NCBI RefSeq assembly: GCF_058153355.1
Contig: NZ_CM177019.1
Reading direction: 5' to 3' (one strand)
DNA length: 64,000 bases
This document shows positions 4,476-41,335 of the stretch, piece by piece. Each line of letters opens with the position of its first letter. Position 1 is the first letter of the stretch. The notes below the pieces were generated by a model. The model saw only the letters and a program-made list of their open reading frames with translations, did no database searches and was not told the DNA's origin. Position numbers and translations under genes: made by a program.

Positions 4476-5437
4476 ATAATCCCGGCCTGATAGAAATCCT
4501 GCAGGTTAATCGCGCCGACGAGTTTGCCGTTTTCATCTACCACCGGTGCGGCGGTGATTTTGCGCTTCATCAGGATCTCTTTGGCGTCGATGGCGCGACT
4601 TTGCGATAGCAACGTCGTGCCGCCTGCCGTCATCGCTTCATTAACTGGCGTGGTGAGTGCACCGCCGCCAACCAGCCAGCGACGTAAATCCCCATCGGTA
4701 AAGACGCCTTTCACCAGCCGTTGATCGTCGCACACGGCTACCAGTCCCAGACCGGTGCGACTGAGTTCCAGCATCGCATCCATCACGCTGGCGGTTAACG
4801 CCACCTGCGGGATGGCGTCATCACGGCGCATCAGATGATGCACTTTGTTCAGCAAGCGAGCGCCCAGAGCCCCAGCTGGGTGGGAGCGGGCAAAATCTTC
4901 TTCATTAAATCCGCGCGCCTGCATGACCGCCATCGCCAGCGCGTCGCCCATCATCAGGGTATTGACGGTGCTGGAGGTCGGCGCAAGATGCATCGGGCAG
5001 GCTTCGCGTTCTACAGAGATATCCAGCACCGCTTTCGCCGCCAGGCCCAGCGGTGATGTCGGTTTACCGGTCATCGCCAGCAGCGCGATAGATTTGTCTT
5101 CCAGACGCGGAATAATCAGATCCAGTTCCTTTGCGCCACCGGAGTAAGAGATAAACAGCATCACATCGCGGCTTTCAATCATCCCCAGATCGCCGTGCAG
5201 TGCTTCTGCCGGATGGACAAAAAAAGCAGGCGTGCCGGTACTGGCAAGCGTTGCGGCGATTTTCTTACCAATGTGGCCCGATTTGCCAATTCCCGAAACC
5301 ACCACTTTGCCTTCGCAGTGCAGGATGATATTGGCGGCGCGAACAAAATCATCGCCCAGACGTTCTGGTAAACGGCTTGCTTCCTGCAACTCCAGCATTA
5401 ACGTCTGACGTCCCGCGTTCAGTAGTGCTTCACTCAT
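4472..5437 (-). CDS. gutQ: D-arabinose 5-phosphate isomerase (SIS + CBS domains)
   Basis: 321 aa; SIS motif [14 protein letters not shown] and C-terminal CBS pair; last gene of the srl-gut operon. Confidence 0.9.
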
Positions 5438-6203
5438 TGCTTTCTCCGGTTATGATCACATCGATCCCTTTCTCTTCCAGCGCCTGACGAAACGCCGGAT
5501 CGATACCTGCGTCGGTAATTAGCTTATCGACGCTTTCAAGACTGCAAACTACGTTGGGGCTTTTACGGCCAAACTTTGATGAGTCCGCCATCAAAATCAC
5601 TTCGCGCGCGGCATTGCACATTGCCTTACTGACGGTATAAACCTCGTTGAACGTGGTTACGCCCGCATTGAGATCGATGCCGTCGGTGCCCATAAACAAT
5701 TTATCGAAGCTGAAATGTTCGAAGGCATTCTCTGCCAGTTGCCCGTGAAATGAGGCCGATTTTTTACGAAATGTTCCGCCTGGCATCAGGATAGTTTGTT
5801 CGTTATCCAGTTCGGATAGCGCATTGACGATATGCAGGCTGTTGGTCATTACTGTGATGTTATTAAAGCGCGAGAGCAGGGGGACCATCTGCAAAACGGT
5901 ACTGCCAGCATCAAGAATGATTGAATCGCCATCATGAATAAAACTGACGGCAGCTTCTGCAATCAGCTCTTTCTTGTGGGTGTTGATGAGCGTTTTATGA
6001 TCGATAGGTGGATCGGATTCCTCTTTATTTAACACCACGCCGCCATAGGTACGAATGACGGTTCCAGCATGTTCCAGAATGACCAGATCTTTGCGAATGG
6101 TTGTGCCTGTGGTGTCAAAGTATTGCGCCAATTCTTCAACCGAGCATTTCCCCTGCTTTTGCAGGTACTCCAGAATGGCGGCCTGACGCTGACGAGGTTT
6201 CAT
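5430..6203 (-). CDS. srlR: DeoR-family glucitol operon repressor
   Basis: 257 aa; N-terminal HTH, DeoR-type sugar-binding C-terminus; operon position. Confidence 0.9.
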
Positions 6204-16419: not shown

Positions 16420-16605
16420 ATGCTGATTCTGACTCGTCGAGTTGGTGAGACCCTCATGATTGGGGATGAGGTCACCGTGACAGTTTTAGGGGTAAAGGGC
16501 AACCAGGTACGTATTGGCGTAAATGCCCCGAAGGAAGTTTCTGTTCACCGTGAAGAGATCTACCAGCGTATCCAGGCTGAAAAATCCCAGCAGTCCAGTT
16601 ACTAA
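16420..16605 (+). CDS. csrA: Carbon storage regulator
   Basis: 61 aa [48 protein letters not shown]... Confidence 0.98.
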
Positions 16606-16919
16606 TCTTTCCGCGTCTCATCTTTATCGGTGAGACGCACCCTCAAAATTCCTCCTTCACTCCATTGTTTTTTCGCTTTACTCCCGTTCATTCAACTTTA
16701 GTCTCCATTTTTTGCATTACTGCTATCTGTCAGACCTCCGTTTTTCTGTTGATAAAACACTCTTTTTGACGTTTTTATAGACTAATTGAGCGTGAAGTGT
16801 GCAAACGATAAAAGTGTGGGAAAAATTGTTTGACTTATAAGTCTCAGAAAGTAATATGTGCGCCACGCAGCGACGATGAGCGATAAACAAGTTCTTCGAA
16901 GCACTCGTAAGAGGCGTGT

Positions 16920-17012
16920 GGTGAGGTGGCCGAGAGGCTGAAGGCGCTCCCCTGCTAAGGGAGTATGCGGTCAAAAGCTGCATCCGGGGTTCGAATCCCC
17001 GCCTCACCGCCA
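16920..17012 (+). tRNA. serV: tRNA-Ser (anticodon GCU)
   Basis: 93 nt with long variable arm, anticodon loop CUGCUAA, 3' CCA encoded. Confidence 0.93.
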
Positions 17013-17015
17013 TTT

Positions 17016-17092
17016 GCATCCGTAGCTCAGCTGGATAGAGTACTCGGCTACGAACCGAGCGGTCGGAGGTTCGAATCCTCCCGGATGCACCA
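17016..17092 (+). tRNA. argV: tRNA-Arg (anticodon ACG), copy 1
   Basis: 77 nt GCATCCGTAGCTCAGCTGGATAGAGTACTCGGCTACGAACCGAG...CACCA. Confidence 0.93.
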
Positions 17093-17208
17093 TATTCTAC
17101 GAAATCTTCAGCGATGAAGGTGTCGAAGAGGTGGCGGTACTAACCGCAAGCACTAGGGAGGATAACGTTGCTTTAGCAACGGCCCGAAGGGCGAGCCGTA
17201 AGGCGAGT

Positions 17209-17227
17209 AATCCTCCCGGATGCACCA
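17209..17227 (+). repeat. Orphan 3' fragment of tRNA-Arg (acceptor/T-arm end only)
   Basis: aatcctcccggatgcacca matches the last 19 nt of the flanking tRNA-Arg genes; no matching 5' half. Confidence 0.6.
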
Positions 17228-17291
17228 TCTCTTACTTGATACGGCTTTAGTAGCGGTATCAAAAAATCTGCAGTAAAGTAAGTTTCCCGAT

Positions 17292-17368
17292 GCATCCGTA
17301 GCTCAGCTGGATAGAGTACTCGGCTACGAACCGAGCGGTCGGAGGTTCGAATCCTCCCGGATGCACCA
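17292..17368 (+). tRNA. tRNA-Arg (anticodon ACG), copy 2
   Basis: Identical 77-nt sequence to copy 1. Confidence 0.93.
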
Positions 17369-17470
17369 TATTCTCCGTAATCATCAGTGATGATGGTTAA
17401 GATGGATTTTCTTATTTGATATGGCTTTAGTAGCGGTATCAATATCAGCAGTAAAATAAGTTTTCCCGAT

Positions 17471-17547
17471 GCATCCGTAGCTCAGCTGGATAGAGTACTC
17501 GGCTACGAACCGAGCGGTCGGAGGTTCGAATCCTCCCGGATGCACCA
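17471..17547 (+). tRNA. tRNA-Arg (anticodon ACG), copy 3
   Basis: Identical 77-nt sequence to copy 1. Confidence 0.93.
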
Positions 17548-17757
17548 TATTCTCCGTAACCTTCAGCAATGAACGTATCGAAGAGGTAGCGGTACTAACC
17601 GCAGGCACCATCTTCTCCAAAAAATCCCCTTCAAAAATATTTCATTTCTAAATAACTATTTTATCCATTTCCTGAATATTCTTCTCCTTCGCCATCAGCG
17701 ACAAAATCAAGCAATTACGCTAAAGTAGCGTCATATTTTTCGACTTGCGAGAAGACC

Positions 17758-18324
17758 ATGTACGAGCGTTATGCAGGTTTAATTTTTGATATGGATGGCA
17801 CAATCTTGGATACGGAGCCTACGCACCGTAAAGCGTGGCGCGAAGTATTAGGGCACTACGGTCTTCAATACGATGTTCAGGCGATGATTGCGCTTAATGG
17901 CTCGCCCACGTGGCGCATTGCTCAGGCGATTATTGAGCTTAATCAGGCCGATCTCGACCCGCATGCGCTGGCGCGTGAAAAAACAGAAGCAGTCAGAAGC
18001 ATGTTACTCGATAGCGTCGAACCACTCCCCCTTGTTGAAGTGGTGAAAAGCTGGCACGGACGTCGACCAATGGCTGTAGGAACGGGGAGTGAAAGCGCCA
18101 TCGCTGAGGCACTGCTAACGCACCTGGGATTACGCCGTTATTTTGACGCCGTCGTTGCTGCCGATCACGTCAAACATCATAAACCTGCGCCAGACACATT
18201 TTTGTTGTGCGCGCAGCGTATGGGCGTGCAACCAACACAGTGTGTGGTCTTTGAAGATGCTGATTTCGGTATTCAGGCGGCCCGTGCTGCAGGCATGGAC
18301 GCTGTGGATGTTCGCTTGCTGTGA
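17758..18324 (+). CDS. yqaB: HAD-superfamily sugar phosphatase
   Basis: 188 aa; HAD motif I FDMDGT near N-terminus. Confidence 0.88.
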   Translation: MYERYAGLIFDMDGTILDTEPTHRKAWREVLGHYGLQYDVQAMIALNGSPTWRIAQAIIELNQADLDPHALAREKTEAVRSMLLDSVEPLPLVEVVKSWHGRRPMAVGTGSESAIAEALLTHLGLRRYFDAVVAADHVKHHKPAPDTFLLCAQRMGVQPTQCVVFEDADFGIQAARAAGMDAVDVRLL

Positions 18325-20389: not shown

Positions 20390-20462
20390 AAAAAGGCCAC
20401 TCGTGAGTGGCCAAAATTTCATCTCTGAATTCAGGGATGATGATAACAAATGCGCGTCTTTC
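20390..20462 (-). ncRNA. micA: MicA (SraD) sigmaE-dependent sRNA
   Basis: Minus-strand sequence GAAAGACGCGCATTTGTTATCATCATCCCTGAATTCAGAGATGAAATTTTGGCCACTCACGAGTGGCCTTTTT matches MicA as I recall it; gshA-luxS intergenic, with terminator hairpin. Confidence 0.85.
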
Positions 20463-26955: not shown

Positions 26956-27064
26956 TATTTTTATTCATCAGGTGATGATTAAGCTGGAAATCAATAATAG
27001 CGGATGTTGATGAATATGGGATGAAAGATAGATTGTTGAAATGTGCGGTGTGGTTTGTAGACAT

Positions 27065-27140
27065 GATAAGACGCGGCCGCGTCGCATCAGGCATTGTGTA
27101 CAGAGCGGCGGATAAGGCGAAAACGCCTTATCCGCCCGAA
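27065..27140. repeat. REP palindromic units between ygaY and proX
   Basis: gacgcggccgcgtcgcatcaggc and ggcggataaggcgaaaacgccttatccgcc inverted repeats. Confidence 0.5.
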
Positions 27141-41104: not shown

Positions 41105-41335
41105 TTGCCGGAGAGCGGCTCCGCCTTATCCGGCCGACATAGATTTATTCCTGTTCACGTACAGATTGTTGGATGCGGCGTAAACGCCTTATCCGACCTG
41201 GATTCTCGTAGGCCGGACAAGACGCGAAGCGTCGCCTCCGGCATGGTGCGCCGAATGTCGGATGCGGCGTAAACGCCTTATCCGACCTACATTTCCGTAG
41301 GCCGGACAAGACGCAAAGCGTCGCCTCCGGCATGG
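41105..41335. repeat. BIME: tandem REP elements between gabT and gabP
   Basis: Two near-identical ~60-bp units GGATGCGGCGTAAACGCCTTATCCGACCT...TAGGCCGGACAAGACGC(G/A)AAGCGTCGCCTCCGGCATG. Confidence 0.75.

Follow-up and report, generated by a model that had tools for sequence, protein, structure and literature searches.

A 19-nt copy of the tRNA-Arg 3' end in the Escherichia coli serV-tRNA-Arg(ACG) operon as the probable terminus of an RtT-like spacer element

Introduction

According to the annotation of the best-matching genome, the stretch from 16920 to 17547 of the window (the whole 64-kb stretch of DNA analysed here) corresponds to the interval that separates csrA from yqaB in E. coli. An isolated 19-nt copy of the tRNA-Arg 3' end is found in this tRNA array, between the first and second tRNA-Arg genes, and its presence raises the question of whether it is the remnant of a lost gene copy or a regular component of the operon. 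An earlier note on this DNA, made from the letters alone, proposed that unequal recombination within the array had changed the number of Arg genes and had left the 19 nt behind as a partial copy. To answer the question, we consider in turn the genes of the array, their copy number in other strains, the structure of the spacer that carries the 19 nt, its relatives in E. coli and other Enterobacterales, and the deletion junctions within the array.

Organization of the tRNA array

ARAGORN and the Rfam tRNA model identified four tRNA genes in the array, one for tRNA-Ser(GCU) and three for tRNA-Arg(ACG); for serV and all three Arg genes, the predictors drew the cloverleaf expected of a functional tRNA. 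An exact-string search showed that the three 77-nt Arg genes are identical to one another and to argV, argY, argZ and argQ of K-12, which verified the description of the array in the earlier note as serV followed by three identical tRNA-Arg genes. The features of the locus are as follows.

16830-16857, + strand: sigma-70-like promoter upstream of serV (TTGACT, 16-nt spacer, TAATAT), consensus match only
16920-17012, + strand: tRNA-Ser(GCU), serV (ARAGORN; Rfam tRNA model, 56.8 bits; K-12 serV position)
17016-17092, + strand: tRNA-Arg(ACG) copy 1 (ARAGORN; Rfam tRNA model, 67.1 bits)
17093-17227, + strand: complete RtT-like spacer element of 135 nt, with hairpins in its 5' part and a 3' domain that GGGAGGAU/AUCCUCCC pairing closes and that terminates in ACCA
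17209-17227, + strand: 19-nt copy of the tRNA-Arg 3' end (exact match), forming the 3' strand of the closing helix of the element plus its ACCA tail
17228-17291, + strand: leader module B of 64 nt upstream of copy 2, equal to the module in the K-12 argV-argY spacer
17292-17368, + strand: tRNA-Arg(ACG) copy 2 (ARAGORN; Rfam tRNA model, 67.1 bits)
17369-17410, + strand: remnant of an RtT-like element, first hairpin only, without the 3' domain and without a tRNA-tail copy
17411-17470, + strand: leader module B of 60 nt upstream of copy 3 (repeat family D4; K-12 alignment)
17471-17547, + strand: tRNA-Arg(ACG) copy 3 (ARAGORN; Rfam tRNA model, 67.1 bits)
17548-17610, + strand: 5' half of an RtT-like element, the 3' domain (70 nt in K-12) being deleted between two GCACCA motifs
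17717-17741, + strand: terminator-like hairpin and T-run just before the start of yqaB (17758), consensus match only

The promoter-like site and the terminator-like site are each the sole site of their kind within 16600-17800. The predicted promoter would give serV a leader of approximately 55 nt, in line with the 52-56 nt given for the serV leader (PMC7049720). Open reading frames listed across the array were rejected as mechanical and as overlapping the tRNA genes.

Copy number of the tRNA-Arg genes

Three Arg copies are a minority state in E. coli. A search with the 77-nt gene found 21,501 copies in 5,425 of 5,426 complete genomes (mean 3.96, median 4, range 1-9), and a spread sample of 60 genomes contained 51 with four copies, 4 with three, 3 with five, 1 with two and 1 with six. 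Arrangements found in the window and in other strains are listed below, with spacer and trailer lengths in nucleotides.

Window, 24A16CRGN010 and AST85: 3 Arg genes; spacers 199/102; trailer 210
YL03 and Iso00041: 4 Arg genes; spacers 198/62/102; trailer 210
405: 5 Arg genes; spacers 198/62/62/102; trailer 210
ETEC H10407: 3 Arg genes; spacers 62/198; trailer 147
G8 and VL40: 3 Arg genes; spacers 198/198; trailer 280
OkiPb01698: 3 Arg genes; spacers 196/198; trailer 280
FDAARGOS_1255: 5 Arg genes; spacers 64/62/62/63; trailer 280

The alleles 199/102, 198/62/102 and 198/62/62/102 have a common 210-nt trailer type and differ in steps of 139 bp, that is, one tRNA gene plus a 62-nt spacer. The arrangement in the window equals the four-copy allele of YL03 and Iso00041 minus one such unit, and strain 405 has one unit more; the spacer sequences of the window and the four-copy allele differ, and the one-unit deletion describes the arrangement and is not proven descent. 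Since at least three unrelated three-copy arrangements were found, three-copy arrays must have arisen more than once.

The alleles thus differ in the number of whole units, each bounded by long identical repeats, and they fit a change in copy number by unequal recombination or by replication slippage, two processes that are indistinguishable here. In E. coli, tandem tRNA genes have reportedly been described by Withers et al. in 2006 as polymorphic in copy number through either process, and the present array resembles such cases in its whole-unit alleles bounded by identical 77-bp repeats. Four Arg genes are present in most arrays of other genera, which suggests that four copies may be ancestral and that three would have been reached by loss.

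It is very unlikely that the three copies reflect the collapse of a tandem repeat during assembly and that the true array has four or more. Tandem units of 139-276 bp with identical 77-bp cores are hard to resolve with short reads; however, the arrangement in the window aligned as one full-length piece over 1,931 nt in at least 11 complete assemblies among the matches listed, these assemblies represent two sequence backgrounds (99.1-99.2% and 96.6-97.0% identity), and arrays of 1-9 copies are common in complete genomes. The 1,931-nt query is better suited to recognizing window-type arrays than positions 17160-17412, which are not diagnostic and mostly match every array.

Spacer modules in K-12 and other E. 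coli arrays

The 64-kb window contains four occurrences of AATCCTCCCGGATGCACCA, one at the end of each of the three Arg genes and one at 17209-17227, and the expected number of matches in shuffled sequence was 0.00 even when two mismatches were allowed. Neither ARAGORN nor the Rfam tRNA model called a tRNA at 17209-17227 or in the element that encloses it, and together with the exact match this substantiates the isolated 3' end that had been reported at this position. Among 69 related elements, the first base of the tail copy is A in 27 and C in 32; because this base varies, the stretch derived from the tRNA is really 18 nt long.

In K-12 MG1655, serV is followed by argV, argY, argZ and argQ; the spacers measure 198, 62 and 198 nt, and 280 nt separate argQ from yqaB. 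The four Arg copies given for K-12 in the earlier note were correct. Each long spacer consists of an element A (approximately 115 nt), the 19-nt tail copy F and leader B (approximately 64 nt). The short spacer is leader B alone, and the argQ trailer is composed of A, F with one mismatch and unique sequence. K-12 carries the tail copy three times, in both 198-nt spacers and after argQ, and the first of these lies at exactly the position seen in the window. The two arrays are alike in their location between csrA and yqaB, their identical tRNA sequences, their spacer modules and the fragment itself. They differ in that the window has three Arg genes rather than four, that its second spacer is a 102-nt deletion variant and that its trailer element is without the 3' domain; the deletions in the second spacer and the trailer explain why the window has one tail copy and K-12 has three.

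The same organization was found in the 17 E. coli arrays examined, including the window. Every spacer of 196-199 nt and every 280-nt trailer has the 19-nt copy, its offset from the start of the preceding tRNA gene is constant (191-193 nt), and the conserved element always directly precedes it. Blocks shared by the spacers had also been described earlier. We recovered them, with a start one base further upstream: the block at 17123-17148 recurs at 17578-17603 with one mismatch and belongs to a 139-nt repeat family whose copies after Arg copy 1 and after Arg copy 3 are 94% identical.

Predicted fold and covariation of the spacer element

The element in the window has a predicted fold of -58 kcal/mol (z = -5.3). 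It comprises two 5' hairpins and then a domain closed by the pairing of GGGAGGAU with AUCCUCCC of the tail; the closed domain, which is flanked by GCA/UGC, holds three small hairpins and has the ACCA end. RNAalifold applied to a plain MAFFT alignment recovered this structure only in part, with the variable 5' hairpins out of register, and for this reason we used a covariance model and realigned the 69 elements to it (alignment A3).

In alignment A3, 90.8% of the cells could pair, compared with 30-51% in controls in which the partners were slid by 1-3 columns, and 19 pairs were changed on both sides, compared with 6-9 in the slid controls, although these pair counts are inflated by the fitting of the alignment to the structure. 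The covariation score was 0.215 (at most 0.067 in the slid controls), and none of 500 shuffles matched the observed pairing and covariation values. Most of the compensatory changes are located in the two 5' hairpins and in the GCC-GUAA-GGC hairpin; one pair of the latter occurs as G-C in 33 sequences and as C-G in 32. The closing helix can pair in 95.9% of the cells; its 3' strand is nearly invariant, and it therefore receives almost no covariation support within the Arg set (two pairs, in one sequence each), so that the main support for this helix comes from the comparison of Arg and Tyr operons described below.

The compensatory changes indicate a structure that has been maintained, and they weigh against reading the element as a tRNA-Arg pseudogene in decay, with 5' two-thirds too diverged to be recognized. 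The element does have the 5' strand of the T-stem (GGAGG) in addition to the 3' strand, and the best local alignment of the 5' part of the tRNA crosses a hairpin at roughly the position of the anticodon arm. However, the similarity to the first 58 nt of the tRNA was matched by 177 of 500 shuffles, the element is 135 nt long rather than 77, the tRNA predictors did not call it, and its conservation with compensatory changes over long evolutionary distances is unlike that of a pseudogene. We consider such an origin quite improbable. The analysis shows instead that the element is structured and conserved, and that its final 18-19 nt correspond to the T-stem 3' strand, the acceptor 3' strand and the CCA of the upstream tRNA.

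Relationship to RtT and the tyrT operon

The Rfam RtT model (RF00391) matched positions 17100-17227 with 30.6 bits, and a focused search gave 31.7 bits for the 3' half, with an E value of 8.5e-5. The E values for the element in the window ranged from 8.5e-5 to 1.5e-3, and the posterior probabilities were mostly at the top level in the 3' half. The alignment path ran through AACGUUGC-UUUA-GCAACGGCCCGAAGGGCGAG...CGAGUAAUCC and then into the tail. The curated gathering threshold of RtT, 45 bits, was not reached by the window element (30.6-31.7 bits), by the Arg copies of K-12 (22.8-31 bits) or by any Arg-type element in 12 loci from other genera, whereas the RtT copies of K-12 tyrT scored 133-137 bits. 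The Arg element fails the family rule of Rfam, and we call it RtT-like; by that rule it is not a member of the family.

A reciprocal comparison was made with a covariance model, R1, built solely from Arg-operon elements. R1 matched all four tyrT RtT copies with 29-32 bits (E values of 4e-5 to 2e-4); it gave 146 bits for the window element, which is itself among the sequences from which R1 was built. Since the Rfam model matches the Arg element and R1 matches the tyrT copies, the two are related, and we conclude from these sequence matches that the Arg element is a diverged relative of RtT, homologous to the tyrT repeat in its 3' half.

The order of genes in the K-12 tyrT operon is tyrT, an RtT copy that terminates in the final 19 nt of tRNA-Tyr, then a short leader, tyrV and three more RtT copies; the annotated 171-nt RtT RNA, rttR, lies directly after tyrV. 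All four RtT copies at this locus terminate in the Tyr tail. Both operons show pairing between the tail and a matching strand upstream of it. The paired strands are GGGAGGAU/AUCCUCCC for Arg and GGGGAAGGAU/AUCCUUCCCC for tyrT; the tail and its pairing partner change together between the two operons.

Arg elements and tyrT repeats thus have several properties in common. Both immediately follow a tRNA gene in the same orientation, as is the case for 17093-17227, which lies directly 3' of Arg copy 1 and ends in the Arg tail; both terminate in the last 19 nt or so of the upstream tRNA, including CCA; both pair this tail with a complementary upstream strand; and both have, in sequence and in structure, the core AACGUUGC-loop-GCAACGGCCCGAAGGGCGA...GAGUAAUCC. 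Arg elements can also follow one another in tandem, with runs of three and of two copies in Pantoea and a run of two in Erwinia, comparable to the three repeats in tyrT. There are also differences. The Arg elements scored 23-32 bits with the Rfam model and the tyrT copies 133-137, the 5' half of the Arg element is unrelated in sequence, and the tail and partner strand are specific to Arg. The closing helix encloses approximately 46 nt in the Arg element and approximately 90 nt in tyrT. Moreover, the Arg element is without a tpr-like reading frame. The Arg-operon elements are a distinct, covariation-supported RtT-like subfamily.

Distribution in other Enterobacterales

To search beyond E. coli, one genome per species was scanned for CCGAAGGG, followed by 8-30 nt and the exact 18-nt Arg tail. 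The scan yielded 29 stretches in 16 genera of Enterobacterales, in which the conservation of CCGAAGGG and of the tail is partly built in, since the pattern required both. The genera are Escherichia, Salmonella, Citrobacter, Klebsiella, Enterobacter, Kosakonia, Lelliottia, Pluralibacter, Silvania, Phytobacter, Huaxiibacter, Kluyvera, Pantoea, Erwinia, Brenneria and Pectobacterium. Wherever the contig allowed it to be determined, the matches were located 130-137 nt downstream of tRNA-Arg(ACG). In the 12 loci from other genera that were scanned with Rfam, a tRNA-Ser gene precedes the array in every case, and MicA is nearby in 6, as it is in the window.

This distribution also bears on the possibility that the tRNA end and the fragment are attL/attR-type duplications flanking a small element that integrated at the tRNA 3' end. 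The layout is formally the same, with an intact tRNA, 116 nt and a direct repeat of the tRNA 3' end. However, the intervening 116 nt encode nothing plausible; they are conserved, structured, RNA-like sequence that is repeated after successive tRNA copies and is orthologous across families of Enterobacterales, and their core is common to tyrT but is followed there by the Tyr tail. Neither foreign DNA nor an integrase was found in the interval that separates the complete tRNA from the partial one, and the annotation from alaS to gshA, in which the neighbours are alaS, csrA, yqaB, yqaA and gshA, contains no integrase. We consider an integration remnant very unlikely.

It is extremely unlikely that the fragment is a partial tRNA gene from a recent unequal crossover that reduced the array to three. 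The window does have three Arg genes where K-12 has four, and the locus clearly recombines readily, but this reading is refuted by the fragment at the same place in four-copy K-12, in all 17 E. coli arrays examined with long spacers and in the loci of 16 genera, and it is further opposed by the position of the fragment inside a conserved structured element and by its retention in MFDS1019527, a relative with 98.5% identity to the window in the upstream flank. Since the fragment has the same offset in K-12, it was not left by the event that gave three copies. The earlier proposal was therefore half right: whole-unit alleles support a change in copy number by gain or loss of units, in line with unequal recombination or slippage, but the partial copy did not result from it, as K-12 has the fragment too. 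Among the findings that would speak against its reading, the earlier note had named that the fragment belongs to a known conserved spacer element, and this is what we found in K-12, in the E. coli arrays and in the 16 genera.

Taken together, these results make it likely that the locus is a serV-tRNA-Arg(ACG) operon in which the 19 nt are the 3' terminus of a 135-nt RtT-like element, a standing component of the operon in E. coli and other Enterobacterales, and that nested repeats explain the losses seen in the window. The isolated tail copy is mostly ordinary, being the end of a conserved spacer element, in a strain that has three Arg genes instead of the usual four.

Truncated elements and deletion junctions

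Two further elements in the window are truncated. The remnant at 17369-17410 aligns to the first 28 nt or so of the element in the third K-12 spacer, after which approximately 96 nt are missing, and it scored 13 bits with R1. Its hairpin contains a compensatory pair (CUUCA/UGAAG to CAUCA/UGAUG), and the 102-nt spacer to which it belongs is identical in 7 of the sources examined, including the window. In the 210-nt trailer of the window, 70 nt of the 280-nt K-12 trailer are gone between two GCACCA motifs; the remaining sequence at 17548-17610 scored 33 bits with R1, with 64 model positions skipped.

The short spacers of other strains (62-64 nt) are of the module-B type alone. In these spacers, B joins the CCA of the tRNA exactly as it joins the CCA of the tail copy in long spacers, and the tail copy and the true tRNA end are 19-bp direct repeats. 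Short spacers are what would remain after deletion between the tRNA end and the tail copy, which would yield exactly the 62-64 nt seen. The 147-nt trailers are putative deletion products of the same kind behind the last tRNA gene. Rearrangement is thus more likely to have used the tail copy as a substrate than to have produced it.

The 77-bp tRNA genes, the 19-bp tail copies and the GCACCA motifs are nested direct repeats. Recombination or slippage among these repeats probably gave three genes instead of four, removed most of the element after copy 2 and removed the 3' domain of the element after copy 3. As an instance of the known copy-number polymorphism of tandem tRNA genes the array is not unusual; its extra feature is a further level of deletion, at the tail repeats and the GCACCA motifs, that removes spacer elements and not genes.

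Proposed processing and possible role

Since the sole promoter-like and the sole terminator-like site flank the whole array, the element is probably transcribed together with the tRNAs. The closing helix with its ACCA end would mimic the minihelix formed by the acceptor and T-arm of a tRNA. This minihelix would probably be processed in the manner of a tRNA 3' end, by cleavage downstream of CCA and trimming, and module B would serve as the 5' leader of the next tRNA. By analogy with the 171-nt RtT RNA from tyrT, these steps may release a stable RNA of approximately 135 nt. An example of a spacer-derived RNA from a tRNA operon is 3'ETS-leuZ. The element resembles it, as a resemblance only, in being a non-tRNA piece of a polycistronic tRNA transcript that may persist after processing.

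A broader generalization is speculative, and we put it forward as doubtful on present evidence. The tRNA operons of enterobacteria may contain a wider class of structured RNAs, the RtT-type elements, for the most part unannotated and each built on the T-stem and acceptor 3' strand of its own tRNA, that mimic an uncharged minihelix with ACCA, are possibly functional, and spread and shrink at their tail repeats. If this were true, the minihelix-mimic RNA might guide or buffer the processing of the polycistronic precursor, or it might titrate proteins and enzymes that bind tRNA, for example RNase P, 3' trimming exonucleases, the CCA-adding enzyme or RelA, and the elements would spread by tandem amplification and shrink by deletion at the tRNA-tail repeats. 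RtT has been connected with the response to a shortage of amino acids (Bosl and Kersten 1991, as cited in PMC4986893), and titration of RelA would fit this old link between RtT and the stringent response. A second subfamily with a tRNA-specific tail provides a comparative handle on the function of RtT.

The array, its polymorphism and the RtT family are of known kinds, and the reference genome has the fragment as well. What is added here is modest: the covariation-supported Arg subfamily, its missed annotation, and the joint switch of tail and partner between Arg and Tyr. Neither the Rfam threshold nor the RefSeq annotation that was consulted picks up the Arg-type subfamily. In genome annotation, a lone tRNA 3' end beside a tRNA-Arg array should be taken as the mark of an RtT-like element and not as a pseudogene or a recombination scar.

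The number of Arg genes may matter in its own right. tRNA-Arg(ACG) is the only tRNA substrate of TadA, and removal of three of the four copies in K-12 lowered the level of tRNA-Arg(ACG) 16-fold and reproduced the growth defect of a tadA mutant (PMC13170351). As the loss of copies in K-12 lowers tRNA-Arg(ACG), the natural alleles with 1-9 copies could affect translation and editing. A single hint of a change in copy number itself came from the laboratory K-12 derivative MC1061, which is listed with two Arg genes under the 1,931-nt match.

Structured elements following tRNA-Arg genes

The Arg-type element, an RtT-like structured spacer that follows tRNA-Arg and ends in a copy of the tRNA 3' end (the tail copy), is truncated after Arg copy 2. 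The first hairpin of this truncated element is CAUCA-GUGA-UGAUG (window 17380-17394), whereas the same hairpin in full elements is CUUCA-GCGA-UGAAG (window 17105-17118). On the predicted pairing, CAUCA/UGAUG versus CUUCA/UGAAG is a compensatory double change, and it lies within a remnant that lacks the remainder of the element.

Runs of two or three Arg-type elements with no intervening tRNA were found in Pantoea ananatis and Erwinia phyllosphaerae, and every one of these elements ends in a tail copy:

L035 (Pantoea ananatis locus) 4860-5263 and 5394-5661, (-) strand, tandem Arg-type elements
L033 (Erwinia phyllosphaerae locus) 5898-6165, (+) strand, tandem Arg-type elements

In this respect they resemble K-12 tyrV, in which three RtT repeats follow the gene in tandem.

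Arrays with few tRNA-Arg genes

The array is a rearrangement breakpoint in E. coli IH5 (NZ_CP168949.1; L015, the locus fetched from this strain, 2001-2870). There, serV is followed by one tRNA-Arg gene (annotated as 74 nt) and, immediately after it, by a truncated pdeC and then soxS and soxR, which stand where further Arg genes and yqaB would be; the whole IH5 genome contains only two matches to tRNA-Arg(ACG). Among the hits to the 1,931-nt window query, two Arg genes were listed at the locus for MC1061, a laboratory derivative of K-12, and HUSEC2011 (O104:H4), and one for strains D7 and D1; these counts are as listed. Since MC1061 is listed with two Arg genes, this suggests that the array is able to change over laboratory history.

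Lineage of the window and the yqaB side

On the yqaB side (window 17758-18324 and its flanks), identity to most E. coli is only approximately 94%. The top complete genome shows 99.2% identity to the window across 1,931 nt; from these identities, the window lineage seems to be rare among complete E. coli genomes. The annotation of E. coli 24A16CRGN010, whose genome is nearest the window, gives yqaA as a pseudogene containing an internal stop (L002, the locus fetched from this strain, 2522-2950).

Other RNA features

ARAGORN placed one antisense call on the array, covering part of Arg copy 1 and 15 nt beyond:

17036-17107, (-) strand, 'tRNA-Arg(tcg)'

This is almost certainly a false call arising from the reverse complement of a genuine tRNA; it was limited to Arg copy 1 and absent for the other Arg copies, and an Rfam search returned no tRNA on the (-) strand at these positions. 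The other RNA features of the window, taken as those above the Rfam gathering scores, were as follows:

20391-20462, (-) strand, MicA sRNA
27060-27137, (-) strand, naRNA4 (REP-derived) match
41211-41287, (-) strand, naRNA4 (REP-derived) match
49522-49597, (+) strand, tRNA-Met gene
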